A DNA stretch of 64,000 bases, taken from positions 455,269 to 519,268 of the forward strand of contig DASPLQ010000012.1 of the NCBI GenBank assembly GCA_035627515.1. The letters are read 5' to 3'. The notes under the pieces are model-generated. The model saw only the letters and a list, made by a program, of their open reading frames with translations, made no database searches and was not told the origin of the DNA. This stretch comes from Vitreimonas sp. (GTDB taxonomy: Bacteria > Patescibacteriota > Microgenomatia > UBA1400 > PJMF01). Position 1 is the first letter of the stretch, and every line of letters begins with the position of its first letter. This document shows, piece after piece, positions 4,598 to 19,478 of this stretch. A program made the translations under genes and the position numbers.

Positions 4598-5197
4598 TTA
4601 ACAGGAATTAAAGTCATAGCCTGGTTTTTGTTTGGCAGCGCCACCAATACAATAACAAGGGTCATAGTGATTATATGATAAATGCTTATCAGCTTTGTTG
4701 CAGCGAACCATGGCTGCGCCATCGGTGCAGTAGCCACCCGCTCCACCATCGTTAGACATCTGCCCAACCGTGCAACCACCGCCACCACCAGTCCCACCGC
4801 TGCCTCCGGTTCCGCCGGTGCCAGTTGTAGCTGGAGCTACGATAGCTGCTGGGGTAGAAGACCCTCCCACACCAGCGCCAAAGTTAACAACATTAATGCC
4901 TAAGAAATTTTGTAATACTACAAACAGTGCGATGGTAGAGGCTAAAACGATGATGCCAATGATCGCGCCCGTGATTTTATTACGAGCTTTTTCAATTTGA
5001 CCTTTGTCGCCGCCGGCTGTGATCCAGGTGATCGCACCCCAGACTAAATAGAGGAGGACTAACAGGGCTGCCACCACCATCACGCCACTCAGGACACTGC
5101 CCAGAAAGGCTCCGAAACCGTCACCAGCTTTGGTAACACTGCCATCAACGCCCGGAAGAGCGCCTTGGCCTGCTTGGTAAAAATTGAGTTCATTCAT
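4598..5197 (-). CDS. T4SS-type pilin-like protein, paralog 4, with a Gly-rich and Cys-rich C-terminal extension.
   Basis: Core WITAGGDKGQIEKARNKITGAIIGIIVLAST, followed by a (GGT/GGS)n tract and a Cys-rich tail (CTVGQ...CTDG...CNKADKH...CYCIGG...NSC). Confidence 0.55.
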   Translation of the reverse strand: MNELNFYQAGQGALPGVDGSVTKAGDGFGAFLGSVLSGVMVVAALLVLLYLVWGAITWITAGGDKGQIEKARNKITGAIIGIIVLASTIALFVVLQNFLGINVVNFGAGVGGSSTPAAIVAPATTGTGGTGGSGGTGGGGGCTVGQMSNDGGAGGYCTDGAAMVRCNKADKHLSYNHYDPCYCIGGAAKQKPGYDFNSC

Positions 5198-5212
5198 AAT
5201 TACTATCTTATG

Positions 5213-5623
5213 TTAAATAGTTGGAATAGTTAATCGCAAGATATCGAAATTATTGCCAAAGAACGCCCGACTGATGAAGCCGATGATGAAAAACGATCCT
5301 ACCAATAACACCATACCAATGATGGCATTAGTGATTTTATCGCGGGCTTTTTGAATTTTGCCGCTATCACCACCAGCGTAAATCCACTCTAAACCACCCC
5401 AGAGGAAGTAAATAATCACAGCCAGGGCTCCGACCGCAATCAAACCGCGCCAAATGACGATGAAGTAGCTCATAAAAGTAGCGCCACTTTCAGCTTGAGC
5501 GGGGTTATTCCCTAATTGGCCGGTGACAGGATTTTTGATGCCTTCGAAAGCAGCTTGAACCAGAGAACTGGAACTCATAAATGACAAGATGGCGAGCAGT
5601 GGAGCTAAAAGATGTTTTTTCAT
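5213..5623 (-). CDS. T4SS-type pilin-like protein, paralog 5.
   Basis: Signal peptide MKKHLLAPLLAILSFMSSSSLVQA. Core WIYAGGDSGKIQKARDKITNAIIGMVLLVGSF. Confidence 0.6.
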   Translation of the reverse strand: MKKHLLAPLLAILSFMSSSSLVQAAFEGIKNPVTGQLGNNPAQAESGATFMSYFIVIWRGLIAVGALAVIIYFLWGGLEWIYAGGDSGKIQKARDKITNAIIGMVLLVGSFFIIGFISRAFFGNNFDILRLTIPTI

Positions 5624-5625
5624 GG

Positions 5626-6018
5626 TTAACGATTATTAATGATATCTAGTAATGATTGTCCTGGTGACAAGACATCAATGCCGACGATGCGGCCAATTAA
5701 GCCCATCACACCATAAGCAGCCACAATGATAATTAAGCCCATCACACCTTGAATCATTTGATCGCGAGCTTTACCCACCTTACCACTGTCTCCGCCAGCA
5801 GCAGTCCATTTGAAAGCACCCATCACAAAGTAAACGATGAAAAACAAGGCTGCTAACACAGTCAAAAAGCCTAAAATTTGTGACACAAATAACTCGAGGT
5901 TTTTCAACGCGGTTTCGCGACCGACAGCTGAGTCACCAAATTTAGTGATGTTGAAGTTATCAGCGGCAGGAGTAATGCCTTTTCCAAAGTCAGCAGTTTT
6001 GGCAAGTAACGTTAACAT
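5626..6018 (-). CDS. T4SS-type pilin-like protein, paralog 6.
   Basis: Core FKWTAAGGDSGKVGKARDQMIQGVMGLIIIVAAYGV with two TM helices. Confidence 0.6.
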   Translation of the reverse strand: MLTLLAKTADFGKGITPAADNFNITKFGDSAVGRETALKNLELFVSQILGFLTVLAALFFIVYFVMGAFKWTAAGGDSGKVGKARDQMIQGVMGLIIIVAAYGVMGLIGRIVGIDVLSPGQSLLDIINNR

Positions 6019-6019
6019 A

Positions 6020-6394
6020 TTACGGTCCTTTAATAATCGGATTCAAGATAAAGCCAGCATCATCGAACACAATCAAGCCAATTAAGGCCGCCACGGTGTA
6101 CGAAGTGACAATTAAAATTAAACCAATCACGCTCATGGTGAGACGCTCACGAACTTTGTTGTGAGCACTGGCATCACCGCTCGCAGTAATGTACTCGTAA
6201 CCAGCTAAGATAAATTGAAACATCACCCAGATACCTGCGATGACGGTGGCAACGCGAATAAGGGTGGACATAAAGGCTAAAATACCGATTTGATTACCGC
6301 CTGTGCCACTATAGAGTTGGACACCGGGTGGTGGGGAAACTTTACCAAAGACATTAGCAGGAGGAGCGGCGAGGAAAAAAGAAAAGAGCGACAT
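6020..6394 (-). CDS. T4SS-type pilin-like protein, paralog 7. Start moved to the internal Met MSLFSFF; the ORF track gives 6475, which overlaps the upstream gene.
   Basis: Signal-like N-terminus MSLFSFFLAAPPANVFG. Core YEYITASGDASAHNKVRERLTMSVIGLILIVTSY. Confidence 0.5.
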   Translation of the reverse strand: MSLFSFFLAAPPANVFGKVSPPPGVQLYSGTGGNQIGILAFMSTLIRVATVIAGIWVMFQFILAGYEYITASGDASAHNKVRERLTMSVIGLILIVTSYTVAALIGLIVFDDAGFILNPIIKGP

Positions 6395-6423
6395 GATGTG
6401 AATTATACCATTTTTTATGATGG

Positions 6424-6783
6424 CTAGAACATAATCTCTTGGCCAATGACAATTTCTACCACCTGAACTATCCAATAGGCAATAAACATGATGATATAAC
6501 CAGCCGCGGCGGTAGTGATAATGGATTTGGCTTCATCCTTACCTTTACTACCACTTTGAATAAACTTAAAGCCAGCATAAATAATCAACAAAAAGAGAAT
6601 AATGCCAGCTAACACAAACAAGTTGCTGACCAAAATATTGATGAGTTGAGTGGGTTGAGCGTAAACGCTTTTAACTGTGGCTTTGCCTGGACCAAGTGTC
6701 AAACAATTGCCCAGATCAATTCCCGAGACACCGGGGTCACACCCAGGGGCAGCAGCTAATAAACTTAACGTAGACAACAGCAT
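6424..6783 (-). CDS. T4SS-type pilin-like protein, paralog 8. It is the first gene of the array.
   Basis: Signal peptide MLLSTLSLLAAAPGC. Core FKFIQSGSKGKDEAKSIITTAAAGYIIMFIAYWIVQVVEIV. The C-terminus resembles the orphan pilin at 16159-16599. Confidence 0.55.
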   Translation of the reverse strand: MLLSTLSLLAAAPGCDPGVSGIDLGNCLTLGPGKATVKSVYAQPTQLINILVSNLFVLAGIILFLLIIYAGFKFIQSGSKGKDEAKSIITTAAAGYIIMFIAYWIVQVVEIVIGQEIMF

Positions 6784-6832: not shown

Positions 6833-7387
6833 ATGACTGCTCAGTTGGATACAGATAAGATATTGCTCTCTCGATTAAAAGCGGGTGATCCAGCCGCTGT
6901 CCAAGAGTGGTTCCAAACCTATCACGCTAAGTTAGTCCGTTTTATAGCTGCTAAAGTTACCAATTCCACTGATGCCGAAGAATTAGCTCAAGAAACCTTC
7001 ATCAACTGCTTGAAACATTTACCGTTATTCCGAGGTGAGTCGCAAATTTGGACGTGGATGCAAAGTGTAGCCCGTCATGAAATTGCTGATTACTTCCGTA
7101 AAAAATACGCTAAAAAAGCGTTAAATGTTTTACCTCTCAGTGAGTTAATTGGCACTGAGCCGGTGGCTGATGCTCACGAACTAGCTGAAAAAGTCAAAGC
7201 CACTCTCAAAAAAATGACAGCCGAAGCCCAAGAATTATTGTGGCTGAAGTATGTCGATGGCAAGAAAGTTGCCGATATTGCTCTAGAGTTGGGGCGCAGC
7301 GTCAAAGCCGTGGAGTCAGATTTATTTAGAGCTCGTGTGGAGTTTAAGGCACTATATGCCGAAATCGATACTGCTGCCACCCGCTGA
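6833..7387 (+). CDS. ECF (sigma-70 family, sigma-24-like) RNA polymerase sigma factor, divergent from the pilin array.
   Basis: Region-2-like ETFINCLKHLPLFRGESQIWTWMQSVARHEIADYFRKK. Region-4 HTH LLWLKYVDGKKVADIALELGRSVKAVESDLFRARVEF. Confidence 0.75.
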   Translation: MTAQLDTDKILLSRLKAGDPAAVQEWFQTYHAKLVRFIAAKVTNSTDAEELAQETFINCLKHLPLFRGESQIWTWMQSVARHEIADYFRKKYAKKALNVLPLSELIGTEPVADAHELAEKVKATLKKMTAEAQELLWLKYVDGKKVADIALELGRSVKAVESDLFRARVEFKALYAEIDTAATR

Positions 7388-7553
7388 TTTTTTGGGTAAA
7401 CTGCAAGCTGAGGCTGCGCGGCAAGCTCGGCTGCATGAACATCGTTTTTTCCCCCCGCAACTGGATTTTTTAACCTCGTTTATTGGTCGATATCCCTGGC
7501 AAACGAGTGGAGCCTTAGCGTTGCTAACGGCTTTAGTATTGGAGTTGCTGTGA
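7356..7553 (+). CDS. Small hypothetical protein with a C-terminal hydrophobic segment, overlapping the sigma gene 3' end. Possible anti-sigma factor. Start uncertain.
   Basis: ORF in another frame overlapping the sigma stop. Single TM ALALLTALVLELL. Position immediately after an ECF sigma gene is typical for anti-sigma factors. No motif support. Confidence 0.2.
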   Translation: MPKSILLPPADFLGKLQAEAARQARLHEHRFFPPQLDFLTSFIGRYPWQTSGALALLTALVLELL

Positions 7554-7903
7554 CAAATCGATCTTTACTAAGCTGGAGCTTTTCACTGCTTTATTCCCTG
7601 GCACAAATTACACAGGGATTGTTATTGCACCCTTACCAAACGATGCAGTCTCTGGTTCAGGATAAAGTTTTTGTGTGGATGACACTATTGCCGGCAGTGG
7701 TGTTAGCAATGGTCACAGTTGGATGGCGGTTTGTGATCGTGCCGGTAGTACGATTGGTTTTTTCCTGCCAGGCCACTGGCTTTATTGGATGCGATTTTCT
7801 ACCCTTTATTTCGAATACCCTGACATTCTTCTGTATTTATTGGCAGGTGCTATTGATTTATTTGCTGTTTAGATTTGATTGGGTGTTTGAAAACGACACC
7901 TAA
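7550..7903 (+). CDS. Hypothetical polytopic membrane protein.
   Basis: 117 aa with 3-4 hydrophobic helices. Start overlaps the previous ORF by 4 nt. Confidence 0.35.
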   Translation: MTNRSLLSWSFSLLYSLAQITQGLLLHPYQTMQSLVQDKVFVWMTLLPAVVLAMVTVGWRFVIVPVVRLVFSCQATGFIGCDFLPFISNTLTFFCIYWQVLLIYLLFRFDWVFENDT

Positions 7904-7935: not shown

Positions 7936-8337
7936 CTACGCAGCTTTGGGCACAGCGGCAGATGACGGTAAATGCTGTTTGATTTTGGCTAAAATATCTT
8001 CTAACGACATATCGCTTTTGACGATGTAATCAATAGCCCCGAGTTTTAAGCCCTTATCAATATCTTCACGTTGCCCTAAGTTCGAGGCGATAATGACAGG
8101 AATTTTTTTCCAGGTAGGATTACTACCAATATCAGTTAAGACTGAGAAGCCATCTTTAATCGGCATCATTAAATCTAATAAAATGACATCGGGTTGGCTA
8201 ACTTTGAGCGCCTCAATCGCTTCATTGCCATCGGCAGCTAATACTACTTCGTAACCGGCTTTAGCTAACTTTACGCGATAGGCATTGCCTAAAAACTTAT
8301 CATCCTCGGCTACTAAAATCTTAAACATATTTACCAC
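7936..8337 (-). CDS. Stand-alone response regulator receiver (CheY-like REC) protein.
   Basis: ILVAEDD...(phospho-acceptor context)...VILLDLMMPIKDGFSVL...IPVIIASN...DYIVKS. Confidence 0.8.
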   Translation of the reverse strand: MVNMFKILVAEDDKFLGNAYRVKLAKAGYEVVLAADGNEAIEALKVSQPDVILLDLMMPIKDGFSVLTDIGSNPTWKKIPVIIASNLGQREDIDKGLKLGAIDYIVKSDMSLEDILAKIKQHLPSSAAVPKAA

Positions 8338-8349
8338 CCTTTTATTTTA

Positions 8350-8775
8350 TTAATTACTAGTTGCTACAACTGGTTGTTCATCTGATTCTTCTGAAGTAAT
8401 GAAATCTTTAATAATCGCGATAATTTCATCTAACCGGTACTCAGCTTTAAGCAAATATTTTTTTGCACCTAAAGCTAACATGTTATGCACTTTTTCTGGA
8501 TTAGCTGAATTACTGACCACAACTACCGGAATCTCACTCCAACGAGGGTCTTTTTTAAGCTCTTGCATAAAGGAAAGGCCATTCATATCTTTAAGATAAT
8601 AGTCTAGCCAGACAGCGTCAGGTAATTCATCAACATTACTCAGGTAGTCCACTGCTTGTTGGCCACTGGAACAAGATAAAACATCAATTCCCGTCAACTT
8701 GAGTTTTTTAGTGATAGCTTGTAGAAGTAAAACCTCATCTTCAACCACCATCACTGTAGGAAATTTTTTACTCAT
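8350..8775 (-). CDS. Stand-alone response regulator receiver (REC) protein.
   Basis: VMVVEDE...AVWLDYYLKDMNGLSFMQELK...IPVVVVSN...KYLLK. Confidence 0.75.
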   Translation of the reverse strand: MSKKFPTVMVVEDEVLLLQAITKKLKLTGIDVLSCSSGQQAVDYLSNVDELPDAVWLDYYLKDMNGLSFMQELKKDPRWSEIPVVVVSNSANPEKVHNMLALGAKKYLLKAEYRLDEIIAIIKDFITSEESDEQPVVATSN

Positions 8776-9560
8776 AACGAAGGTCTTTCTGTAACTACTA
8801 CTGGGTGGGTCGGAAAAGTTACGGTAAAGGTACTGCCTCTATTTTCTTGTGAATGAAACTCAATGGTAGCCGCTATCATGTCCACTAATAATTTAACTAT
8901 GTACAAACCCATCCCCGAGCCATCAGCTTTAGCCTTGATATTATCAGCTCTAAAAAACTTTGTAAACGTTTGAGACTGCTGGGTTAATGGGATTCCATAT
9001 CCGGTGTCTGTAATCTGCCATTGAATGTCGGCCGCCGTGCTTTTTAGTTTTACGGTGATCTGGCCATCAGCAGGGGTGTATTTAATGGCATTAGAAATCA
9101 GGTGCCTAAAAATAATCTTTACCACCTCTTCAGGATATGGCACTGGTGGCAGGTCGGTTTCATATTCCTCACTCACGTGCTGGTGCGTGTTTTTACCCCG
9201 GAGTTGCAGTTGTTCGGAAATGACTTGCTGTGAAAGGTGAGCCAGATTTATATTCTCCGGTTGGGGAAGTACATGGCCAGCTTTTAAGGTGGCAGAGTGC
9301 AAGAGGTGAGTCAGAACATCGCTGAGACGACGATTGCTGTCATAAATAGAGAGCACATGGTCGTATTGTTCAGGTGTGAGGGGGCCAATATCTCCTGCCA
9401 GTAACAGTTCAGTTAACCATGCCACAGATGAAATGGGGGTTCGTAACTGATGGGAGAGGTGAGTGAGAAATTCTAGTTGGGTACTATCGACGGTGGAGGA
9501 AGAGACGGACATATGATTGTGTGTGACGCGTGACCTACTTTTAATCCAGTGAGACCTCAC
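8772..9560 (-). CDS. Soluble sensor histidine kinase (HisKA + HATPase_c).
   Basis: H-box LSHQLRTPISSVAWLTELLL. N-box NAIKYTP. G-boxes DTGYGIP and GSGMGLYIVKLL. Confidence 0.8.
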   Translation of the reverse strand: MRSHWIKSRSRVTHNHMSVSSSTVDSTQLEFLTHLSHQLRTPISSVAWLTELLLAGDIGPLTPEQYDHVLSIYDSNRRLSDVLTHLLHSATLKAGHVLPQPENINLAHLSQQVISEQLQLRGKNTHQHVSEEYETDLPPVPYPEEVVKIIFRHLISNAIKYTPADGQITVKLKSTAADIQWQITDTGYGIPLTQQSQTFTKFFRADNIKAKADGSGMGLYIVKLLVDMIAATIEFHSQENRGSTFTVTFPTHPVVVTERPSL

Positions 9561-11406
9561 CTTTTTTAGCTATCATCCCAGTCACCGGCAAACTAAACCA
9601 AAAAGTAGTGCCCTTATTTTCTCCCGATTCAAACCAAATCTTTCCTCCAGATGATTCAATGACCGCTTTTACTAAATACAAACCTAAGCCAGTGCCATCT
9701 GACTCAACCTTGACAACATTTTCAGCCCGGAAAAACTTTTGGAAAACTTTATGTTGTTGTTCTTTAGGAATCCCATATCCAGAGTCAGTGACCTGCGAAA
9801 TGATTTGATCATCTTTTTTAGAAATGATGACCGTAACTTCTCCACCAGGTGGGGTGTACTTAATAGCATTAGTTAGTAAGTTCATGTAGACATGACTAAT
9901 TAATTGAGGATCCACATTTATGATAGGTAAGTCCTGATGAGCACTAATGATTAAATTGTGTTTTTTCTCTTGGACTTTTACGTCTAACTCAGTGGCTACT
10001 GTTTGGACTAATTTTAATAAATCAGTTGGTTTGGGATCGACAATAATGCGTCCTGACTCAATGCGCGAGATGTTCAGGAGTGAATTAACGAGTTGAATCA
10101 TGCGTTCCGTAGAGTCAGCAATGTTTTGGGCAAAGTCATGTTGTTCGGCTTCAAGTTTACCGGCATCACCAGCCAATAGCATCTCAGTGAACCATTTGAT
10201 AGCAGATAAAGGAGTACGGAGCTGATGGGAAGCTAGGGAAATAAACTCGGTCTTCATTCTATCGACTTCTTTTTCGTGCGTGATGTCACGAATGATCGTA
10301 ATCGTCCCAATGATCTCACCTTTTTTGACTACTGGCGTAGTGGTGATACTGACGTAGTGTTTATTGCTATCATAATCAATGACATAGCTGCCTTTAATTT
10401 GTTGACCGGTTTGAAGAGCTGTGCTAATTGGTTGAGCATCGGCGGGGACCAGTTGCTGTCTCTCATCAGTAAGGACCATGACGTCATTAATACGTTTACC
10501 TTCTGGATGAGGATCTTTGAGTTTGATGATTTCATGCAAGCGTTGATTAGTGAGCTGAATCCGACCTTCTTTATCAGTCACGATCATGCCATCACCAATA
10601 CTGACCAACATGGCTTCATCTTTTGCCTTCTCAGCTTCGATTTCAAGAATTTTAGTTTCCAACTGCCCGGTGCGTTCTTTAACTAAGGCTTCTAATTTAT
10701 CGCGAGTGGTGTCCACTTCGGCTCGCATTTTTTCAAAAGCAGTGGCCAACTCACCAATTTCATCATGAGTAGTAATAGGAATGCGAACTTTAAGGTTGCC
10801 CTTTTGCATTTCAAGTGCTGCTTCCTTCAAATGACGAATGTTACGAATCACTACTTGGTCAAGGAGAAGGGAAATCAGTACGTAGGCAATTACCATGCCA
10901 GCCAAAGTCAACAGCACCACAAAAATGATGAATTGATTCAAACGCTGAGCAGATTTGTCATTCGATAAAGCTAGGTGAGCGGCTGCCACTACTTTATTAT
11001 TAACCACTACTGGCGAAATGGCTTCTAGAACAGCCTCTCCCTCATGGTACTCATTTTTAATAGTTTCTATGCCATTAAAAGCGTTGTTAACTTCGTCAGC
11101 TTCATCTGCCGTTAATAAGGTTTCAGGCAAATTTTCAGTGGAGTAAATAACGGTATGGTCAGGTTTGAGTATTTGGGCAAAATTAACTTTCTCATCTAGG
11201 AGTGCTTCGAGCTTTCGCCGATCATTAGAGCTCTCAAAACTGAGATCACCACTTTCTAGAAGTGTAATGTAGGTAGAAATTCTATCAAATAACAGTTGTC
11301 TCTCAGTTTGGCTTTTGTTGCGAATGGTCATGCCACCAATCACCATCAGCACGATGAAGACGGGCACCAAAGTTAAAAGCAGAATTTTATTTTTAAGACT
11401 CAGCAT
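9541..11406 (-). CDS. Membrane-bound sensor histidine kinase (TM-sensor-HAMP-PAS-HisKA-HATPase_c).
   Basis: N-terminal TM LLLTLVPVFIVLMVIGGM plus a second TM after about 150 aa extracellular. H-box ASHQLRTPLSAIKWFTEMLL. NAIKYTPPGG, DSGYGIP and GTGLGLYLVKAVIE. Confidence 0.85.
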   Translation of the reverse strand: MLSLKNKILLLTLVPVFIVLMVIGGMTIRNKSQTERQLLFDRISTYITLLESGDLSFESSNDRRKLEALLDEKVNFAQILKPDHTVIYSTENLPETLLTADEADEVNNAFNGIETIKNEYHEGEAVLEAISPVVVNNKVVAAAHLALSNDKSAQRLNQFIIFVVLLTLAGMVIAYVLISLLLDQVVIRNIRHLKEAALEMQKGNLKVRIPITTHDEIGELATAFEKMRAEVDTTRDKLEALVKERTGQLETKILEIEAEKAKDEAMLVSIGDGMIVTDKEGRIQLTNQRLHEIIKLKDPHPEGKRINDVMVLTDERQQLVPADAQPISTALQTGQQIKGSYVIDYDSNKHYVSITTTPVVKKGEIIGTITIIRDITHEKEVDRMKTEFISLASHQLRTPLSAIKWFTEMLLAGDAGKLEAEQHDFAQNIADSTERMIQLVNSLLNISRIESGRIIVDPKPTDLLKLVQTVATELDVKVQEKKHNLIISAHQDLPIINVDPQLISHVYMNLLTNAIKYTPPGGEVTVIISKKDDQIISQVTDSGYGIPKEQQHKVFQKFFRAENVVKVESDGTGLGLYLVKAVIESSGGKIWFESGENKGTTFWFSLPVTGMIAKKGEVSLD

Positions 11407-11433
11407 TTATAGTGTTGGGTGAACTCACTTAAT

Positions 11434-13032
11434 TTATTCTTCGCCACTCGTTTCATTATCAATGGCCTTCATATCTGCCACGATCCGGTTGTAAGCTTGG
11501 TCAGCTGTCATTTTGCCATCTAAAACAGCCACTAAATATTGGCGGAAATCACGAGTCATCTTTTCATATTTTTCACCCAAAATGTAATCTACTGTTTTAG
11601 AATCGTAGACATTGCCACCATATTTATTACTAATGTAGCTAATGTATTTATCAAACTGGTCGGCTTGCTGTGAACTATCACCGGATTCACTTAAATTGCC
11701 TTTGATTCCGGAAGGGCCCTTAGCATAGCGAATCCATTTTTCAGCGTTATTGGGGGTAGAGTACTCCATCAATAAACTGACAGCCTCATCTTTAACTGGT
11801 GAATTTTTCATCACAGCAAACATGGGGTTATACCCACCCATATAGTGAGTTACTGGTTGGTACATAGGCATTTCAACCGGCACCATCTTCATAGTTTTGT
11901 CTTTATCGATGCCCCGCCAGTGACTATACATCCAACTAGCGCCGCCTGAATAAAAGACAGTTTTATTATCGAGAGGATAGTTGCGAGTAGGTACCCATTC
12001 TAAAGTTTCATACTCTGCTACTAAAGGTTCATATTGCGACATGTTCTCCAGCGTGGCGAGCGTTTTTCGCAGTGCAGCGCGTTTGGTCGGGGTGAGTTCT
12101 AGCTTTTTGAGTTCCGTAAGGTCAGAAATTTCTGACCGAAACAAACCTTGGAAAAGGTTAAAGGTAGCATTGCCGTAGCCTACGGTTGCACCTTTCTCAC
12201 TGCCATTGTCATAAAAGGCGCCATACTGTGTACCGTGTTGCTTGTTATATGCTTGAATAGCTTTCAGATAGCCAATGAGATCGGCGTCAGTCATGCCTTG
12301 TTCCTTAATTTTGATCCCCATCAAATCAGTCAATTCTTTGTTATAGAAAAAAGGTTGGTAAAAACCCTCGATAAAAGGTCCCGTAATGGTCCCATTCATA
12401 TGGTTGCGGAATTGCGGGTCACTTAAAACGAAGGGTTTCTGGGTTTCTTTAAATCCCGGGACAGTTTCAAAATCAACTAAGTGATTTTTAGCCCAGTTAG
12501 GATCACTAACACCTTCAGCAACATCACTATAGTTGAAAGGTTCAATCCAAATGACGTCCCACTTGATATCGCCACTTTTGATTTGATCAATAACGGCTTG
12601 CAGAGCTTCAGCCCGACCACCTGGGAAATCAACATTCCATTGCAGATTGACTTTAATATCAGGGTGACGAGCTTCAAATTCCCGGATAATTTCTAACATG
12701 TAATCTTCGCGTTTATCTTCGCCTTTCCAGTGGCCAATCATGTTGATAGTTTTTTGTTGGGTATTGGTGGCAGTTTGAGTGGTAATTTTTTGGCGAGTGG
12801 TGATTTCGTTATTGCAGAAAAAGGAAAAATAACCTAAACCAGCAAGGAGTAATACCAGTACTGTCCCGATGCCTAGTAGTGGCCATAACGTCAATCTACT
12901 TAAAAAGCTGCCTGAGTTAGTGTCAGCAGTGTCAGAATCTGGGAGTGAAGCTGATTCGTGAAGGTTTTGTTCGTTGGGTTTTGTTTCTAAAGAATAATCT
13001 TCTTGTGAAGGTGTGGGAAGGGCAGTGAACAT
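11434..13032 (-). CDS. Membrane-anchored extracellular solute-binding protein (ABC SBP family-1-like), probably a co-sensor or ligand receptor.
   Basis: N-terminal TM anchor LTLWPLLGIGTVLVLLLAGLGYF. Large extracytoplasmic domain with SBP-like layout (HWKGEDKREDYMLEIIREFEARHPDIKVNLQWNVDF...). No adjacent ABC permease or ATPase. Directly upstream of the sensor kinase in the same orientation. Confidence 0.45.
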   Translation of the reverse strand: MFTALPTPSQEDYSLETKPNEQNLHESASLPDSDTADTNSGSFLSRLTLWPLLGIGTVLVLLLAGLGYFSFFCNNEITTRQKITTQTATNTQQKTINMIGHWKGEDKREDYMLEIIREFEARHPDIKVNLQWNVDFPGGRAEALQAVIDQIKSGDIKWDVIWIEPFNYSDVAEGVSDPNWAKNHLVDFETVPGFKETQKPFVLSDPQFRNHMNGTITGPFIEGFYQPFFYNKELTDLMGIKIKEQGMTDADLIGYLKAIQAYNKQHGTQYGAFYDNGSEKGATVGYGNATFNLFQGLFRSEISDLTELKKLELTPTKRAALRKTLATLENMSQYEPLVAEYETLEWVPTRNYPLDNKTVFYSGGASWMYSHWRGIDKDKTMKMVPVEMPMYQPVTHYMGGYNPMFAVMKNSPVKDEAVSLLMEYSTPNNAEKWIRYAKGPSGIKGNLSESGDSSQQADQFDKYISYISNKYGGNVYDSKTVDYILGEKYEKMTRDFRQYLVAVLDGKMTADQAYNRIVADMKAIDNETSGEE

Positions 13033-13197: not shown

Positions 13198-13413
13198 ATG
13201 AGCGCACAGGAAAACTGGAGAACCAGACCAGCAACTTGTGGTCATACCGAAATGGTTAATGGCGAATTGGTGTGGATACTAGGACAAGCTCGACAAGCTT
13301 GGACCGAGAAAAAGTTTAAGGAAGAAGGGGAAGCGCGACGTCTAGCTCGGGAAGCAGCCATGGAAGACAGAGCAGCAGAACTGAACCAGGGTGAATTAGT
13401 AGACATTAAATAG
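13198..13413 (+). CDS. Small hypothetical protein. The ORF track starts at 13111; the internal Met MSAQENW was preferred.
   Basis: Only ORF evidence. Charged coiled-like C-terminus. Confidence 0.25.
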   Translation: MSAQENWRTRPATCGHTEMVNGELVWILGQARQAWTEKKFKEEGEARRLAREAAMEDRAAELNQGELVDIK

Positions 13414-13419
13414 GAATCT

Positions 13420-13983
13420 ATGCCTAAAGATGAAGTCATTTTAGTTAACGAGCTCGATCAGGAAATTGGCACCATGGACAAGGTGGAAGCTCATCGTGGC
13501 GAAGGTAAACTCCACCGAGCGATCTCTGTTTACTTGTTTCGTGAGCGTTCTGACTCATCTGGTCCGGAGTTATTAATCCAGCAACGCAGCGCCCAAAAAA
13601 TTGTGGGAGCTGGTCAGTGGGCTAATACCTGTTGTGGCAACGTTCGTCCAGGTGAGAGTTATGAAGACTGTGCGGTGCGGCGATTGAGTGAAGAGTTGGG
13701 GATTACTGGTGTTGAGCTGCAACCACTCTATAAATTTCACTACCATGTACGGTGCAATGATGAGTTTAGCGAACGCGAAATTGATCAGGTTTTTATTGGT
13801 TTTTATGATGAACAGCCGCAGCCAAATCCCGATGAGGTGGCTACAACTGATTGGGTGAACTGGGAAAAGATCACAAATAAAAAACAGCGCTCACAGTTAG
13901 GTAAAGATATTGCCCCCTGGTTTGCAATTATGTTAGATGATCAAAAACTAATCGACAGTCTTAATCACCAATTATCTTTGTAA
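13420..13983 (+). CDS. idi: Isopentenyl-diphosphate delta-isomerase, type 1 (NUDIX fold).
   Basis: Aligns by eye to E. coli Idi: VILVNELDQEIGTMDKVEAH / LHRAISVYLF / LLIQQRSAQKIVGAGQWANTCCGNVRPGESYEDCAVRRLSEELGI. Conserved Cys in the TCCG context and downstream Glu. Confidence 0.8.
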   Translation: MPKDEVILVNELDQEIGTMDKVEAHRGEGKLHRAISVYLFRERSDSSGPELLIQQRSAQKIVGAGQWANTCCGNVRPGESYEDCAVRRLSEELGITGVELQPLYKFHYHVRCNDEFSEREIDQVFIGFYDEQPQPNPDEVATTDWVNWEKITNKKQRSQLGKDIAPWFAIMLDDQKLIDSLNHQLSL

Positions 13984-13990
13984 GGACAGT

Positions 13991-14587
13991 ATGATCACAG
14001 AAAATCGAGTTAAAACCAGTGAAGCTGCTCAACATGCCAAAGAACGAAAAGGGGTCTATTGTTACTTTGTCTTGCCCACGGGCGATGGTGATAAATTAGT
14101 CTTATTTCAATTACCAGAAGAAGATTTTAGTAATGGTGGCAAACAAGAAGGGGAGCCGGAAGTTCATGAGTACTTAATCCCTTTTGCACCGAGCATGATT
14201 AGTTTAGTCAGTGGGGGAGCTAAAGAAGAAAGTGATTTTCATAAAGATATGTTGCGTGAGATTGAAAGCGAAGCTGGTTTAGCACTTCAGCCTGGAGATA
14301 TCACTCGTTTAAGTGAGCAACCTGTTACCTCCACTATTCAAGACAGACGGGATAGAGGGACCTTTAATATTTTAGGTATTCCCTTTTTATACTCTGTCAC
14401 CCCATATGGCCTAGCAATTGCAAAGCTTCATGCTATTCGCCATAAGCAACAGATGGTGGTAGCTACGCCGGCCGAGTTGGTTAATAACGAAAAGTACCAG
14501 TTAAGACCATTTGCTCAAACGGCAGTAAGGGTGTTGCCAGAATTGATGACTAGTAAAACTCACAGTATTGCAGTTGCATCAACATAA
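13991..14587 (+). CDS. Hypothetical protein with a degenerate NUDIX-like box, sitting inside the isoprenoid cluster.
   Basis: GGAKEESDFHKDMLREIESEAGL approximates the NUDIX signature Gx5Ex7REUxEExGU. Confidence 0.3.
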   Translation: MITENRVKTSEAAQHAKERKGVYCYFVLPTGDGDKLVLFQLPEEDFSNGGKQEGEPEVHEYLIPFAPSMISLVSGGAKEESDFHKDMLREIESEAGLALQPGDITRLSEQPVTSTIQDRRDRGTFNILGIPFLYSVTPYGLAIAKLHAIRHKQQMVVATPAELVNNEKYQLRPFAQTAVRVLPELMTSKTHSIAVAST

Positions 14588-14603
14588 TTTAAAATAAAAC
14601 GTT

Positions 14604-15404
14604 TTGTATATGAAAAAATTAACTCTTATCAAACTTGGTGGCTCGATTATTACTAATAAAGAAGTACCCATGACAGTGCGTGAAGACGTGCTGACACGGT
14701 TGGTGCGTGAAATTGCTAAGGCTCAAAAAGAAACCGGTGATGTTTACATCGTGGGTCACGGCCAAGGTAGCTTTGCCCACGCGCCGGCCATGCGCTATCA
14801 AACTATGGACGGTTTTATCAAAAGTGATAGCCGGATTGGGATGGCAATTACGCAAGATAGTGCAGCGCAACTCAATCGCATTGTGGTCAAACATTTTTTA
14901 AATGAACAACTACCTGCGGTCAGTTTCATGTTTAGTAATAGTATGGTGTTGCACAAACGTGAAGCCAAGCACTGGTGTAGCCAAGTCCTCGATCAATATT
15001 TACAAAAGGGTTTATTTCCTATTACTGGTGGCGACGTAATTGTTGATGAAGACCAAGGGTGTACGATTTGGTCCACGGAGCAAGTCTTAGCATATTTAGC
15101 GGAAACGCTTCCCGAAAAAGGCTACCAAGTTGCACGAGTCATCCACGTGGCAGAAGTGCCTGGAGTTTTGGATGCTGAACAAAAAGTAGTGCCCACAGTC
15201 TGCCGGGATAATCAAACTGAAGTCAAAAAATTAATCAATGGCACTAAAGGTTTTGATGTCACTGGTGGCATGTGGCACAAAATTGAAGAGTCATTAGACT
15301 TAGCTGATCAAGGTATTGCGAGCGTAATTCTGTCTGGGATGGAGAAAAATTGCTTGTATAATTGTTTGGTGGGCAAAGATTTTTTGGGCACCTTAATTCA
15401 ATAA
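14604..15404 (+). CDS. Isopentenyl phosphate kinase (amino-acid-kinase fold).
   Basis: IKLGGSIITNK (compare archaeal IPK LKLGGSILSDK). VGHGQGSFAH (compare VHGGGAFGH). FDVTGGMWHKIEE (compare IDVTGGMKYKIE). Confidence 0.8.
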   Translation: MYMKKLTLIKLGGSIITNKEVPMTVREDVLTRLVREIAKAQKETGDVYIVGHGQGSFAHAPAMRYQTMDGFIKSDSRIGMAITQDSAAQLNRIVVKHFLNEQLPAVSFMFSNSMVLHKREAKHWCSQVLDQYLQKGLFPITGGDVIVDEDQGCTIWSTEQVLAYLAETLPEKGYQVARVIHVAEVPGVLDAEQKVVPTVCRDNQTEVKKLINGTKGFDVTGGMWHKIEESLDLADQGIASVILSGMEKNCLYNCLVGKDFLGTLIQ

Positions 15405-15422
15405 TTTTTTTACAGTATTTTT

Positions 15423-16124
15423 ATGAGTAATAACATTGTTTCTGACAAAGTACCACAACATATAGCTCTTATCATGGATGGTAATCGACGGTGGGCCAAG
15501 CAGCATAAGTTAGAAGCTTTACGTGGCCATGAGTATGTAGCAAATCAAGTCATTGAGCCACTGGTAGAACACTGTATTGCTCGTGGTGTGAAGTACCTAA
15601 CGCTCTGGGCATTTAGTACTGAAAACTGGGGGCGTGAAAAAAGTGAGGTGGAAGGTTTGATGAATTTGTTTCGCCACGCCTTCACAAAAAATGCTGAGCA
15701 ATTACATGCTAAAGGCGTGCGTTTAAACACCATTGGCGACTTGTCACGCTTTCCCATTGATATTCATGATAATATCCAAAAATGGTTGGAGACGAGTAAA
15801 AATAATCAACGAATTACTGTGACCTTTGCTTTAAATTACGGTGGTAGAGATGAGTTGGTCAGAGCTATCAATCATTTGCTCGCAGAAGGTGCTAAAACCA
15901 TTTCCGCCGAAGAGATTTCTGCTCATCTAGATACTGCAGCCATGCCTGATCCAGATTTGATCATTCGCCCTGGTGGTGAGCAACGTTTATCGGGGTTATT
16001 ACCCTGGCAAAGTGTTTATGCTGAACTGTACTTCACAGATGTATTAATGCCAGATTTTTCACCAGCTGAATTAGATAAGGCGCTGGCAGAGTATGGACAC
16101 CGAGCACGTCGCTTTGGAAAGTAA
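15423..16124 (+). CDS. uppS: Undecaprenyl (isoprenyl) diphosphate synthase, cis-prenyltransferase.
   Basis: HIALIMDGNRRWAK, LTLWAFSTENWGR and RPGGEQRLSGLLPWQSVYAELYF. Confidence 0.9.
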   Translation: MSNNIVSDKVPQHIALIMDGNRRWAKQHKLEALRGHEYVANQVIEPLVEHCIARGVKYLTLWAFSTENWGREKSEVEGLMNLFRHAFTKNAEQLHAKGVRLNTIGDLSRFPIDIHDNIQKWLETSKNNQRITVTFALNYGGRDELVRAINHLLAEGAKTISAEEISAHLDTAAMPDPDLIIRPGGEQRLSGLLPWQSVYAELYFTDVLMPDFSPAELDKALAEYGHRARRFGK

Positions 16125-16158
16125 AATCTTACACCCACTTTTGCTCTTTGAGAAAACC

Positions 16159-16599
16159 TTAGAAAATGGTGACGCCGAGGATAATCTCCACGATTTGCAT
16201 GATCCAGTAAGCGCAGAATAACATCATGAAACCGAGAATAGCAGCGGTGATGCGCTGGCGACCTGAGTCAATCGATTTTTTAGATGCGGCTCCACTCAGC
16301 ATCTCGAAGCCACCCCAGACAATCATCACAAACAAAATCAGGCCGGCAATGGGGAAGGCAAATAATAAAAACCGAGAGATGAAACCACCGGGGGTGGAGA
16401 GTTCATTAGCAACCGGAGAGTTCATAAACTTCAAGGGGTTTAAGGCGTCGAGAGTAGCTTTATCAACTTTATCGAAGTCACGCAAAGCATCAGCAGGTGG
16501 GTTACTACCCATAGGACTTGCAGCCAAAATCTGGCTGGGTAAAAGCATTGCTAAAAAATTAAGTAGTATAGATAGAGCAATCAAAACACTTTTTTTCAT
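16159..16599 (-). CDS. T4SS-type pilin-like protein, orphan paralog outside the main array. Start moved to MKKSVLIAL; the ORF track gives 16614.
   Basis: Signal peptide MKKSVLIALSILLNFLAMLLPSQILAA. Core WGGFEMLSGAASKKSIDSGRQRITAAILGFMMLFCAYWIMQIVEIILG. Confidence 0.55.
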   Translation of the reverse strand: MKKSVLIALSILLNFLAMLLPSQILAASPMGSNPPADALRDFDKVDKATLDALNPLKFMNSPVANELSTPGGFISRFLLFAFPIAGLILFVMIVWGGFEMLSGAASKKSIDSGRQRITAAILGFMMLFCAYWIMQIVEIILGVTIF

Positions 16600-16603
16600 A
16601 GCT

Positions 16604-17659
16604 TTATGATCCAAAACCAGGAATTTGCAGGATACTAACTCCGATAAATTGTAAGCCGGCTACTGAGAATAATGTGAACAATAAACCTACCACTGCAGAA
16701 GTTAACATATCTTTGGCTTCGCTGGTGCGTTTAGGATCACCCTGACTGATAGCGAACATGAAGCCCGAACTTAGACTCAATAACACCGATGTCCCGGCAG
16801 ATACAGAAATGCCGATCTTGAGAATACTTTGAATTAAGTCAGTAGGATCAGTTGATAAACAACCCACAGCTGTCCAAATACCATCAGACTCTAAGCAGCT
16901 CGTGCATTTGCCATAAGCAGCAGTACTTTCAGGAATCTGTTTACAGAGTTCAAAGTCATAGAGTTCTGAGGAAGCTTTTGCCAGGTGGACACCACAAATA
17001 AATTCATCTTGGCCAGTGATATTGCTGCCTAAAATGCCTCTATTTCCTCGCAGTTCCAGCCGACTAATGTTGTCTTTTTTAAAGTTACCGCTTACGCCTT
17101 CCCACTCAGTGATTAAATAGCCATTATCCCAATTACACTTAAAATTTGAACTTTTACTAATTCCATCCCATTCACCTTCAAACACTTTTTCCAAACCATC
17201 TTCTAATTCACCGGTAACTGCTACACCAACAAAAGTACCTACACCAGGCACCGCAGTCCCAATGGTCCCACCAGCTATGGCTTCTAGTTCTTCAAAACTA
17301 TCATTAGTCCGTTGTTGGCTCACGTGACAGTTTTCAGTTTGTTCATCACTACTCGGTGTGGTGGCTAAGACGGCATATTCCAAAACCATACCTTTTGGTA
17401 ATTGGTGAAGGGTACTGGGTTTGCCGTCGTCCGTAGAACCTTGGGTTTTATAAATAATATCTCCGGTCTTAGTATCACGGAAAATAAAAGTACAATTACA
17501 GGCAGCAGGATTGGTGCTACAACCAAAATCACTCATGGCTGGAGTTTCAGCAAAAACGAAAGAAGGGGTTAGCAAAAGGACACTGGGTACGAAAAGAGCC
17601 ACCAAAAAACGAGCAAGTGAGCGAAAAACTTTTCTTGTCACCCCTGTATTGTATCGCAT
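16604..17659 (-). CDS. Secreted Cys-rich protein fused to a C-terminal pilin-like domain. Possible minor or tip pilin.
   Basis: N-terminal signal anchor, then an extracellular domain of about 250 aa with 14 or more Cys. C-terminus ISQGDPKRTSEAKDMLTSAVVGLLFTLFSVAGLQFIGV matches the pilin core with two TM helices. Confidence 0.5.
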   Translation of the reverse strand: MRYNTGVTRKVFRSLARFLVALFVPSVLLLTPSFVFAETPAMSDFGCSTNPAACNCTFIFRDTKTGDIIYKTQGSTDDGKPSTLHQLPKGMVLEYAVLATTPSSDEQTENCHVSQQRTNDSFEELEAIAGGTIGTAVPGVGTFVGVAVTGELEDGLEKVFEGEWDGISKSSNFKCNWDNGYLITEWEGVSGNFKKDNISRLELRGNRGILGSNITGQDEFICGVHLAKASSELYDFELCKQIPESTAAYGKCTSCLESDGIWTAVGCLSTDPTDLIQSILKIGISVSAGTSVLLSLSSGFMFAISQGDPKRTSEAKDMLTSAVVGLLFTLFSVAGLQFIGVSILQIPGFGS

Positions 17660-17726
17660 TTTTGCAAAAAAAGCCGCAATTCTTTTCAGAGCAGCTAATC
17701 TGAGTCAAATTTGATACACTTGAGGT

Positions 17727-19478
17727 GTGAGAAAAAGCAAAGTTTTAGCAGCTATTGCCATTCTAATCTTGGGATTTGGGATTTGGATTTTAATCTCTCA
17801 AGGTTCCCCTTCCTATGCCATCGACCCCGTCGATGAACTCCAAGGTCAAATTAATGAATTAGCTAATCTCAAAAAACTGTCTGAAGATGCTACAAAACCG
17901 CTGGAGCAAGAATTAAAAAACCTTGACACGCGGATTAAAAATGCTGAAGCTAGTATTGCCCGAGCCAAGAAACAAGCGTCAGATCTAGCTGCTAGTATTG
18001 AAAAGCGAGAAAAAGAATTAGCGGTGCAGTATCAAATTCTCAGTCGGCGGATTGGTGAGCAGTACAAACGATCTCGGACAGCTTCACCATTCCTCATTTT
18101 TTTGAGCAGTGCCGATGCCACCCGTTTGACTCAAGACTTAGCGTATCGTGACTCTATTAAGGCTCAGGATAAGCGCATTATCGAAGATATGGGGGGAGAT
18201 ATTACCCAACTGGAAAAAGACAAAGCCAAACAAGAAAGTGACCAGGTTCGGTTAGCAGCCTTAGAGAAACAACTAGAGGAACAAGCTGGTTTTTTCGAAA
18301 AAGAAATTGCTAAGGCTCGCTCCTATCAGCAAGAATTAAGTGGCAAAATTGCTGCCTTGTCTGCCCAACAACAATCAATTATTAATGCTCGGTCAGGAAC
18401 CTTCATCACCTCAGTGGGTGAGGTGCCGTTAGCCGATGACTTTAATGCTTCAATTGGTTTTAAATCTCAAGCTCCTGGCAACTCATTTGCAGTTTTTAGT
18501 TTTGGCGCATACACGCATCGCAAAGGCATGAGTCAGTATGGTGCCAGAGCGCGGGCGGAAGCGGGGCAATCAGTGGAGGAAATTCTTAAAGCCTACTACC
18601 CCGATGCCACACTCAAAAAAGACTACTCAGCCATGGGCGAAATTGACGTCCAAGGTCACGGCAGGATGAGTTTTGAAGATCGGTATTTGCAAGGTATTTA
18701 TGAAATGCCCGGTGGTTGGCACAGTAATGCTTTGAAAGCCCAAGCTATCGCGGCACGAACGTATGCCATCAAATATACAGACAACGGCAAAAAATCGATT
18801 TGTACCACTGAAGCCTGTCAGGTGTTTAAAAACTCCAAAAAAGGAGGCGAGTGGGAAAAGGCCGTCAATGAAACAAAGGGCTGGGTGTTAGTTGATGGTG
18901 GCGGTAATCCCGTCTCCACGCAATATGCTTCTACTCACGGGGGTTATGCTACAACTTCTGGTTGGGACACCACTGATAAATCAAATAGTGGTGATTGGAG
19001 TAGTCGCTCATGGGAGAATAAAGCCAAATCGCCTTGGTTTTACAAGTCTTGGTATCGGCAAGCGTATTCTTCGAGTAGCAGCAGTTGTGGGCGGCCTCAC
19101 CCATGGCTGTCACAAGAAGAGTTCTCTGATATTATCAATGCCTGGATTGTACGGAAAAATCCTAACGGGGCTGATGTCAGTCGCATTCAACCGGTGACAA
19201 TCAATCAATGTAACGTGGGTGGAAGTGGTGGCAATCCATACTCTATGGAGGAACTGCGTAATTTAGCTAATGGTTCGGGAGGAGCTGTCACCAGTGTGAG
19301 CTCAGTCAGCGTCAGTCACAACGGGAGTGCTCAGACCGACACCGTCACCTTGCAAACCAACCGCGGCGAAATTAAAATTCCAGGCAGTGAGTTTAAATCC
19401 ACTTTTAATTTGCGGGCACCGGGGTATATTTCTATTCCGCAAAGTAGTTTTGCCTTCTTTAATATAGAAAAGACGTAG
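17727..19478 (+). CDS. Membrane-anchored coiled-coil protein with a SpoIID/LytB domain (peptidoglycan-remodelling).
   Basis: N-terminal TM, coiled-coil of about 200 aa, then SpoIID-like motifs GMSQYGARARAEAG and SNALKAQAIAARTYAIKY. Confidence 0.6.
   Translation: MRKSKVLAAIAILILGFGIWILISQGSPSYAIDPVDELQGQINELANLKKLSEDATKPLEQELKNLDTRIKNAEASIARAKKQASDLAASIEKREKELAVQYQILSRRIGEQYKRSRTASPFLIFLSSADATRLTQDLAYRDSIKAQDKRIIEDMGGDITQLEKDKAKQESDQVRLAALEKQLEEQAGFFEKEIAKARSYQQELSGKIAALSAQQQSIINARSGTFITSVGEVPLADDFNASIGFKSQAPGNSFAVFSFGAYTHRKGMSQYGARARAEAGQSVEEILKAYYPDATLKKDYSAMGEIDVQGHGRMSFEDRYLQGIYEMPGGWHSNALKAQAIAARTYAIKYTDNGKKSICTTEACQVFKNSKKGGEWEKAVNETKGWVLVDGGGNPVSTQYASTHGGYATTSGWDTTDKSNSGDWSSRSWENKAKSPWFYKSWYRQAYSSSSSSCGRPHPWLSQEEFSDIINAWIVRKNPNGADVSRIQPVTINQCNVGGSGGNPYSMEELRNLANGSGGAVTSVSSVSVSHNGSAQTDTVTLQTNRGEIKIPGSEFKSTFNLRAPGYISIPQSSFAFFNIEKT

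Follow-up and report, generated by a model that had tools for sequence, protein, structure and literature searches.

Organization of the locus

The DNA analyzed here is a 64-kb stretch of contig DASPLQ010000012.1 (assembly GCA_035627515.1), hereafter called the window. Between positions 13420 and 16124 it carries a compact group of genes for isoprenoid metabolism, in which an open reading frame (ORF), ORF2, lies directly 5' of a gene for isopentenyl phosphate kinase (IPK). An earlier annotation made from the letters of the window alone, the sequence-only reading, had described four genes here, encoding a type-1 isopentenyl diphosphate (IPP) isomerase (IDI), a NUDIX-like protein, IPK, and UppS. 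All four ORFs were recovered at these coordinates and on the plus strand. Together with a small ORF upstream of them, they are as follows:

13198..13413, plus strand: ORF0, a small ORF of 71 amino acids directly 5' of idi
13420..13983, plus strand: idi, type-1 isopentenyl-diphosphate delta-isomerase of the Nudix superfamily (NF002995, TIGR02150, Pfam NUDIX)
13991..14587, plus strand: ORF2, a divergent protein of 198 amino acids, assigned to the Nudix fold from its predicted structure and its relatives
14610..15404, plus strand: ipk, isopentenyl phosphate kinase with an amino-acid-kinase fold (NF040647, PF00696)
15423..16124, plus strand: uppS, cis-prenyltransferase of the undecaprenyl-diphosphate synthase family (TIGR00055, PF01255)

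The intergenic gaps are short, with 7 nucleotides (nt) between idi and ORF2, 22 nt between ORF2 and ipk, and 18 nt between ipk and uppS. The second of these refers to the ATG at 14610, which is used in the public annotation (P0002, 264 amino acids), and shrinks to 16 nt with the alternative TTG start at 14604. A scan of the plus strand of the operon for terminator-like sites found none, and since the gene 3' of uppS is convergent (16159-16614, minus strand, T4SS-pilin family), we place the end of the operon at uppS. Promoter-like sites were no more common than in shuffled sequence, and no promoter is claimed. ORF0 begins with an ATG at 13198 that has a strong Shine-Dalgarno sequence, GAGGAGG, 6 nt ahead of it, and the operon may start with this gene; ORF0 has no Pfam match, and no homolog of it was found in the 30 related loci described below. 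We infer that these genes are co-transcribed in an operon of four genes, or perhaps five with ORF0, in the order (ORF0)-idi-nudix-ipk-uppS.

Identity of the flanking enzymes

The assignments of idi, ipk, and uppS in the sequence-only reading proved correct, and each product scored above a curated NCBIfam cut-off. IDI reached 144.9 bits with NF002995 (cut-off, 127) and 116.9 bits with TIGR02150 (cut-off, 105.8), matched Pfam NUDIX with an E value of 2.3e-21, and had IDI-1 entries as its top relatives of solved structure (3hyq, 1.1e-19). UppS scored 232.3 bits with TIGR00055 (cut-off, 109.55) and matched PF01255 at 2.8e-74; its translation contains the motifs IMDGNRRWA and, at the C terminus, RRFGK.

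For IDI, we take Cys67 and Glu116 of the Escherichia coli enzyme to be catalytic and His25, His32, His69, Glu114, and Glu116 to be its metal ligands. The window protein conserves Cys72, Glu118, Glu120, His25, His32, Tyr108, and Trp167, and so retains four metal ligands out of five. At the position of E. coli His69 it has Asn74 (13639-13641; alignment A3). This asparagine is invariant in the 13 aligned IDIs from the Candidate Phyla Radiation (CPR), which read C-G-N instead of C-G-H and keep the catalytic Cys and Glu and the other ligands. Judged from these residues, metal binding or activity of IDI may differ in the CPR clade.

IPK scored 187.4 bits with the archaeal IPK model NF040647 (IPPK_Arch; cut-off, 120) and matched PF00696 at 7.9e-28, whereas its scores with other kinase models were far below their cut-offs (FomA, 41.5 against 550; ArgB, 24.5 against 151; ProB, 20.3 against 186). 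The three motifs on which the assignment had originally been based, LIKLGGSIITNK, VGHGQGSFAH, and DVTGGMWHKIEE, are all present. In a search against Protein Data Bank (PDB) sequences, the best seven matches were all IPK entries with E values of 5.8e-29 to 1.6e-13, headed by 8u0k (5.8e-29) and 3k4o (6.9e-25), one of the seven being deposited as "gamma-glutamyl kinase related protein." FomA followed as the eighth match (3.4e-9), and no N-acetylglutamate kinase, UMP kinase, or aspartokinase chain was found in this search at an E value of 0.001 or below. The product of 14604-15404 thus groups with solved IPKs and not with the aspartokinases or uridylate kinases named as possible alternatives by the sequence-only reading; the NCBIfam scores and PDB matches together rule out an aspartokinase, a UMP kinase, or FomA.

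When aligned to 3k4o and 8u0k, the window IPK conserves the Asp of GGDV and the Lys residues of three motifs, KLGG, ITNK, and GGMWHK, and the His of its GHGQG loop aligns with the His of VHGGG in the Methanocaldococcus jannaschii enzyme (3k4o). The roles of the HGxG His, of the Lys residues in the KLGG and GGM loops, and of the Asp in GD(V/I) are presumably those seen in the M. jannaschii and Thermoplasma acidophilum structures. Most of 27 CPR IPKs share these catalytic and phosphate-binding residues. The loop His, kept in the window protein, is replaced by Asn (GNG) or Gln (GQG) in the IPKs of loci L020, L021, L023, and L030, which on this residue may constitute a functionally different subclade.

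ORF2 is a very divergent Nudix-fold protein

The product of ORF2 contains a Nudix-box-like stretch, GGAKEESDFHKDMLREIESEAGL, but matches no Pfam or NCBIfam family, and PF00293 does not detect it even at an E value cut-off of 1. A word-indexed search returned only ORF2 itself. A full HMMER search over 1.84 billion protein representatives returned 17 sequences including ORF2, and these 16 relatives overturned its status as an orphan. A scan of GTDB representative genomes with the alignment of the ORF2 family yielded no relative.

The "NUDIX-like" call of the sequence-only reading was borne out by two lines of evidence, the predicted structure and the relatives that match Pfam NUDIX. With the 16-sequence alignment as input, AlphaFold (AF2) predicted the structure of ORF2 with a mean pLDDT of 94.3 and a pTM of 0.88, compared to a pLDDT of 44 from the single sequence. 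Among the top 50 Foldseek matches of this model in the PDB, essentially all were Nudix-fold proteins, including NUDT14, MutT, RenU, and CoA pyrophosphatase (E values of 6.5e-7 to 4e-5; TM scores of about 0.4 to 0.5). At the sequence level, 10 of the 16 family members match Pfam NUDIX, with a best E value of 2.3e-10, and so do several genes upstream of IPK in related loci unaided by any profile of ours (L014, 2.5e-7; L007, 7e-6; L003, 1.6e-4). Because these intermediates match PF00293 although ORF2 itself does not, homology of ORF2 to Nudix proteins is established. A profile of the ORF2 family compared with the PDB likewise matched MutT/Nudix proteins, over the Nudix box. Both the model and the relatives show that ORF2 is a real, very divergent protein of predicted Nudix fold.

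Since IDI also belongs to the Nudix superfamily, we considered ORF2 as a second, degenerate IDI and rejected this assignment: an hhalign comparison with 13 CPR IDIs covers the Nudix box only (39 columns, probability of 66%), and the column of the IDI cysteine is occupied by Ser or Gly across the ORF2 family. Membership in a named Nudix subfamily was rejected as well, NCBIfam giving weak, generic MutT-, RppH-, and NudI-like matches only. Substrate classes of Nudix hydrolases are classically recognized by motifs beyond the box, namely, Pro+16 for ADP-ribose, Tyr+18 for ApnA, SQPWPFPxS for NADH, and LLTxR...FPGG for CoA, and none of these four was found in the ORF2-family alignment. The family has conserved positions of its own, K51-x-E53, Q117-x-R119, and R172-P173.

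In an alignment of 36 family members, G75 (36/36), E90 (35/36), E94 (36/36), and the R172-P173 pair (36/36) are nearly or completely invariant, and K51 (35/36), E53 (34/36), Q117 (34/36), and R/K119 (31/36) are only slightly less conserved. E90 and E94 correspond to MutT E53 and E57, which we take from MutT mutagenesis to be its two most critical residues. The other two Glu positions of the Nudix box, GX5EX7REUXEEXGU, are occupied by Glu in 29 of 36 members each, and the Arg is present in 26 of 36. From these residues, the family as a whole looks like active hydrolases, and phosphates could be bound by three conserved basic residues, K51, R/K119, and R172. The window protein keeps G75, R89, E90, E94, G96, and L97 of the box and has Ser81 and Ser93 at the two remaining Glu positions, with Glu80 and Glu92 adjoining them; its closest relatives have Gln or Ile at one of these two variable positions. 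Activity of the window ORF2 is plausible on this pattern but not assured.

The Nudix family is tightly linked to IPK

To place ORF2 in its genomic context, 30 related loci (L001 to L030) were compared, and a profile of the Nudix family was iterated on the loci fetched. The iterated profile picks out the gene directly 5' of IPK in 20 of 26 IPK-anchored loci and does not pick up IDI, with the qualification that scores of sequences already inside the profile are circular. Circularity does not affect L025 to L027, which were fetched after the profile had been built and matched at 2e-12 to 8e-25. Three further loci, L028, P0122/L029, and P0128/L030, were found through ORF2 and not through IPK, and in all of them the Nudix gene lies between IDI and IPK. 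The exceptions on the side of the family are a peripheral member, P0134, which adjoins a transposase gene instead of IPK, and one further contig that is too short to tell.

In 23 loci, the Nudix stop codon lies -26 to +45 nt from the IPK ATG, and five of these gene pairs overlap. In these 23 loci the Nudix-IPK junction is unbroken, whereas IDI and Nudix, or IPK and UppS, are separated in one locus or another; what breaks the other cluster junctions is a block with the gene for HMG-CoA reductase (HMGR), tag, an extra Nudix gene, or an inverted idi. The Nudix gene is the fastest evolving of the block: its products are 17 to 45% identical to the window copy, as measured on partial local alignments in the 14 loci with at least 25 aligned columns, compared to 47 to 71% for IPK, 45 to 74% for UppS, and 35 to 60% for IDI. 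The loci thus show that this Nudix family is tightly linked to IPK. In L002, the IPK-adjacent Nudix gene is present as a tandem duplicate, 4358-5164 and 5167-5982, with products of 257/268 and 271 amino acids that are 33% identical.

Relation to the mevalonate cluster of Microgenomates

IPK occurs with IDI-I and cis-prenyltransferase in the same order in the 30 related loci, and 20 species-representative genomes have the same neighborhood. In its 5' part, the common order comprises a pilin array on the minus strand, an ECF sigma factor gene, a small membrane ORF, in some cases a small Zn-ribbon ORF, and idi. The 3' part continues with an optional HMGR-HMGS-thiolase-OB-fold ORF block, the Nudix-family gene, ipk, optionally tag and a canonical Nudix gene, uppS, pilin genes on the minus strand, and the genes for SpoIID and RecF. 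The HMGR-HMGS-thiolase-(OB-fold ORF) block is found between IDI and the Nudix gene in L001/L005 and in L025, and its thiolase, HMGS, and HMGR-I are of the archaeal type.

The sequence-only reading had noted that the window holds no genes of the mevalonate (MVA) or methylerythritol phosphate (MEP) pathway. This holds for the approximately 45 larger ORFs of the window scanned with Pfam, none of which was recognized as an MVA, MEP, or trans-prenyltransferase gene; ORFs matching no family could still hide one. Genes for MVK, PMD, AcnX, a UbiD/UbiX-type decarboxylase, M3K, or MBD were likewise not found in the 64-kb window. Beyond the window, a search for HMGR seeded from L001 found none from the 1,409,795-bp contig among the best 120 of 5076 matches, while the HMGRs of two other IPK-bearing contigs ranked near 20. 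This weakly suggests a genome without HMGR, as an HMGR of the window organism could rank below the best 120. Two origins had been offered for the cluster, a salvage route or a fragment of an archaeal-like MVA pathway. The dichotomy was the right one, and of its two sides the origin by reduction of an MVA cluster is favored because relatives hold HMGR, HMGS, and thiolase inside the same cluster. The window cluster therefore looks like a reduced form of the CPR mevalonate cluster.

Small ORFs related to DUF35 were also observed in relatives. A small zf-ChsH2-like ORF stands at the position of ORF0 in several of them, for example, in L016 at 7200-7433 (zf-ChsH2 [DUF35_N], 3.1e-7), and further DUF35-related ORFs are at 5068-5283 in L003 and 8350-8604 in L027; in L001, 4862-5149 gave a weak match to OB_ChsH2_C (0.017). 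DUF35 proteins are scaffolds of archaeal thiolase/HMGS complexes, and the persistence of such ORFs in loci without thiolase and HMGS fits descent from a full cluster that has lost its upstream MVA genes. ORF0 itself was rejected as a DUF35 remnant, because no similarity between it and these zf-ChsH2-like ORFs could be detected.

In some relatives, the interval from IPK to UppS has taken up Tag, a further Nudix gene that is canonical and IDI-like (PF00293, 1e-16 to 2e-21), or the two together. Clusters with this extra canonical Nudix gene contain up to three Nudix-fold genes each. The insertions are located as follows:

L001, 6810-7921: Tag/canonical Nudix insertion between IPK and UppS
L002, 6850-7434: Tag/canonical Nudix insertion between IPK and UppS
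L025, 10804-11376: Tag/canonical Nudix insertion between IPK and UppS
L026, 10800-11327: Tag/canonical Nudix insertion between IPK and UppS

The genes of the block do not all point to the same nearest relatives. When window positions 13420-19478 were compared with L021, L022, L026, L027, and L028, the window IPK was closest to those of L026 and L027 (70 to 71%) and just 47 to 54% identical to those of L021, L022, and L028. UppS was closest to L021, L022, and L028 (69 to 74%), as was SpoIID to L021 and L022 (66 to 73%; not recovered in L028), and the window Nudix protein aligned near full length with those of L022 and L028 only (33 to 42%), L021 having no Nudix gene. Because this pattern of similarity is discordant across the window genes, it suggests that ipk may have been replaced or recombined between Microgenomates lineages.

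The host is a Microgenomates-type member of the Patescibacteria (CPR). Public records P0001 and P0002 name it "Vitreimonas sp.," an alphaproteobacterium, whereas gene content, synteny, and close homologs are those of Patescibacteria/Microgenomates. Several syntenic genome records carry labels such as "uncultured Pseudomonadales," "Limisphaerales," and "Methylococcaceae"; the conflicting taxon labels are probably mislabels of metagenome-assembled genomes. Homologs of the window IPK numbered 401 at E values of up to 1e-5. The best 120 of these are all at least 56% identical, and the taxon names given by their sources, the window's own aside, are Patescibacteria, Woesebacteria, or Pacebacteria. 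The nearest HMGR homologs bear the same three names. The statement of the sequence-only reading that IPK is uncommon in bacteria is therefore true in general but does not apply to this lineage.

These observations agree with a survey by Hoshino and Gaucher (2018, Mol Biol Evol; PMC6107057), who reported mevalonate genes in most Microgenomates, clustered in CPR with a cis-prenyltransferase gene, and IPK as mostly restricted within CPR to Microgenomates and syntenic with IDI-I and cis-IPPS, even in species without other MVA genes. CPR genomes usually have the PMVK/DPMD route, leaving the role of IPK unclear, and the CPR IPKs were described as "enigmatic" and uncharacterized, and characterizing them was considered essential to understanding how the mevalonate pathway evolved in its early stages (PMC6107057). 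The idi-ipk-uppS arrangement is thus already published and ordinary for Microgenomates. The window shares with that synteny the three enzymes and the kind of organism, and differs in the absence of upstream MVA genes and in the presence of the IPK-adjacent Nudix gene. The latter is not mentioned in PMC6107057, in which the word Nudix has no occurrence. In the literature searched, no Nudix gene linked to IPK was found for bacteria or CPR, and papers naming both concern plants and algae. The IPK-adjacent Nudix family is the new element of this cluster.

Proposed function of the Nudix-IPK pair

On balance, we lean toward the reading that ORF2 acts as a hydrolase of IPP and dimethylallyl diphosphate (DMAPP), or of a short prenyl diphosphate, in an operon that supplies the C55 carrier and derives from the CPR mevalonate cluster by reduction. 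IPK would phosphorylate isopentenyl phosphate (IP) to IPP, IDI would equilibrate IPP with DMAPP, and UppS would polymerize IPP to undecaprenyl diphosphate (C55-PP), the carrier for lipid II and peptidoglycan. ORF2 would convert IPP/DMAPP or a short prenyl diphosphate to the monophosphate. Together, the Nudix protein and IPK would buffer the C5 pools from which UppS draws, controlling how large the mono- and diphosphate pools are and in what ratio they stand. Since peptidoglycan genes are present in the same window (MurJ, a class A penicillin-binding protein, a GT28 MurG-like gene, and SpoIID), a need for the undecaprenyl carrier is to be expected. Like co-transcription, we infer the hydrolase activity, its substrate, and the source of IP in this scheme.

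The proposal departs from the sequence-only reading, which had offered ORF2 as the missing phosphatase or a decarboxylase-like activity of the pathway. As a phosphatase, a Nudix enzyme would run from IPP to IP, the reverse of the IPK reaction, which makes sense only as a regulatory or back reaction; a decarboxylase-like activity is unsupported for the Nudix fold. To our knowledge, no known route to IP needs a phosphatase.

Among characterized systems, the plant IPK/Nudix module comes closest to this scheme. As summarized in PMC8248349 from Henry 2015 and 2018, plant IPK and Nudix hydrolases (AtIPK and AtNUDX1/3 in Arabidopsis) jointly set the proportion of IP and dimethylallyl phosphate (DMAP) to IPP and DMAPP. 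Both systems pair an IPK homolog with a Nudix-fold protein, and the proposed diphosphatase-kinase logic is the same. In plants, however, the genes are unlinked and the Nudix proteins canonical, while the bacterial genes are operonic and the Nudix protein, with only predicted activity, is very divergent and not an ortholog of NUDX1 (E value of about 0.05). Plants offer the only precedent for an IPK-Nudix partnership in the literature searched.

Other comparisons are less close. Alternative MVA routes that end with IPK include PMD plus IPK in haloarchaea and Chloroflexi, AcnX plus AMPD plus IPK in archaea, and the Thermoplasma type (PMC11052028). The window resembles them in its equivalog-level IPK and in an IDI acting after IPK, but lacks the MVK, PMD, AcnX, UbiD/UbiX-type decarboxylase, M3K, and MBD genes searched for above. 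Among bacterial Nudix proteins, E. coli NudB, NudF, and NudI and Bacillus subtilis NudF dephosphorylate IPP/DMAPP promiscuously, as housekeeping enzymes with other main substrates whose genes are unlinked to isoprenoid genes. The Nudix fold and a possible conversion of IPP/DMAPP to IP/DMAP are common to these proteins and ORF2; the NudI and NudB models, in contrast, match the ORF2 family weakly (1e-3 to 3e-4), far below their cut-offs. Finally, the engineered isopentenol utilization pathway consists of an alcohol kinase, IPK, and IDI. It shares with the window IPK and IDI as a two-enzyme entry to IPP/DMAPP that bypasses MVA and MEP, the form that a natural salvage would take, but no kinase for isoprenol or prenol was identified here, and a Nudix protein cannot supply that step.

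Several observations weigh against the scheme proposed above. The sequence and fold similarities of ORF2 are only to generic MutT-, RppH-, and NUDT14-like Nudix proteins, and plant NUDX1 matches the family no better than others do (E value of about 0.05). A diphosphatase co-expressed with the opposing kinase would form an ATP-consuming cycle. The window ORF2, in which Ser replaces two of the four canonical glutamates, may be a weak or inactive enzyme. The Nudix gene is missing in 6 of the 26 IPK loci, four of which have IDI immediately 5' of IPK and two of which lack both IDI and Nudix genes, so it is evidently dispensable. Tag, a 3-methyladenine DNA glycosylase (PF03352, 1.5e-78), is part of the cluster in L001, L002, and L025, and hence not every cluster gene is related to isoprenoids. 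Moreover, since the whole region, comprising pilin array, ECF sigma factor, operon, pilins, SpoIID, and RecF, is syntenic in all loci, the conserved adjacency may partly reflect shared ancestry instead of functional coupling.

That the IPK-adjacent Nudix family is a dedicated isoprenoid enzyme, either a diphosphatase of IPP/DMAPP (or of prenyl diphosphates) or an enzyme releasing IP from a scavenged precursor, is a tentative suggestion, and we would not be surprised to see it fail.

The strongest competing explanation, which we nevertheless consider unlikely, is that ORF2 is a housekeeping Nudix hydrolase, such as a MutT-like nucleotide sanitizer or an RNA or dinucleotide pyrophosphatase, kept beside ipk by regional synteny. 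It would account for the best matches in sequence and structure (MutT, RppH, NUDT14, and generic Nudix proteins), for the conservation of the block from sigma factor to RecF in all loci, for the company of Tag in three clusters, and for the six IPK loci without the Nudix gene. It does not readily account for the junction with IPK, which stays unbroken at -26 to +45 nt, including overlaps, in 23 loci in which other junctions are broken, nor for the fact that all family members on informative contigs but one lie beside IPK. In addition, one would expect a sanitizer to occur widely and to evolve slowly, but this family is tiny, with 17 representatives among 1.84 billion proteins, and its gene evolves faster than any other in the block.

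A second alternative, to which we assign a low probability and which takes up the missing activity suggested by the sequence-only reading, is that ORF2 feeds IPK by freeing IP (or DMAP) from a scavenged or other diphosphate-linked precursor, as a salvage step of a symbiont without MVA and MEP pathways. The position of the Nudix gene immediately 5' of IPK and tightly coupled to it would suit such a role, as would a window free of recognizable MVA and MEP genes and, as a weak test, the lack of an HMGR from the 1.41-Mb contig among the best 120 of 5076 matches; the occurrence of the enigmatic CPR IPK even in genomes without other MVA genes (PMC6107057) points in the same direction. Against this, the same Nudix family is also present in L001 and L025, which have HMGR, HMGS, and thiolase, and is thus not specific to MVA-less genomes, and a decarboxylase activity is not expected of the Nudix fold. 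We also know of no natural diphosphate-linked donor of IP.

It is similarly improbable that the window ORF2 is an impaired or decaying copy, retained for a non-enzymatic role in binding or regulating IPK or heading toward loss: such a fate would fit the Ser residues at two box positions at which 29 of 36 members each have Glu (and the closest relatives Gln or Ile at one), the divergence of the gene, the highest in the block, and its failure to match Pfam NUDIX, but a good Shine-Dalgarno sequence precedes an intact, full-length frame, the fold is predicted with high confidence, and E53, G75, E90, E94, Q117, R119, and R172-P173 are all retained, with Glu80 and Glu92 beside the Ser positions.

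Surroundings of the operon

The window, with a G+C content of 36 to 49%, also holds genes for an ECF sigma factor and Lgt. The operon is flanked on both sides by minus-strand arrays of the T4SS-pilin family (PF18895, eight of eight tested) at 2630-6475 and 16159-16614. These encode small paralogous membrane proteins, and the same arrays flank the operon in related loci.

A minus-strand block at 7936-13032, containing two response regulators, two histidine kinases, and a solute-binding protein (PF01547), separates the pair of ECF sigma factor and membrane ORF (6833-7903) from the isoprenoid operon. In the 24 related loci with the sigma gene, it lies 0.5 to 2 kb 5' of the operon or IPK, and the two-component block is absent. 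The block looks like an insertion specific to this genome.

The sole tRNA gene in the 64 kb, at 42414-42487 on the plus strand, encodes a tRNA-Ile with the anticodon TAT. This anticodon is unusual for reading AUA in bacteria, most of which use a lysidine-modified CAU. At 23669-25462 on the plus strand, the window encodes an ATP-dependent DNA ligase (PF01068, PF04675, PF04679) in a bacterial genome.

Implications

If the Nudix family acts as a diphosphatase, the cluster would represent the first operon-encoded bacterial IP/IPP cycle, and a regulatory logic recently found in plants would be wired into an operon in ultra-small bacteria. Either version of a dedicated isoprenoid enzyme would explain why IPK and IDI are retained in host-dependent CPR bacteria even without a route to IP. 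Should salvage be the true function, it would show how episymbionts without MVA and MEP pathways come by the lipid carrier that their cell wall requires. Through the conserved Nudix partner, the role of IPK in CPR becomes directly accessible to experiment.

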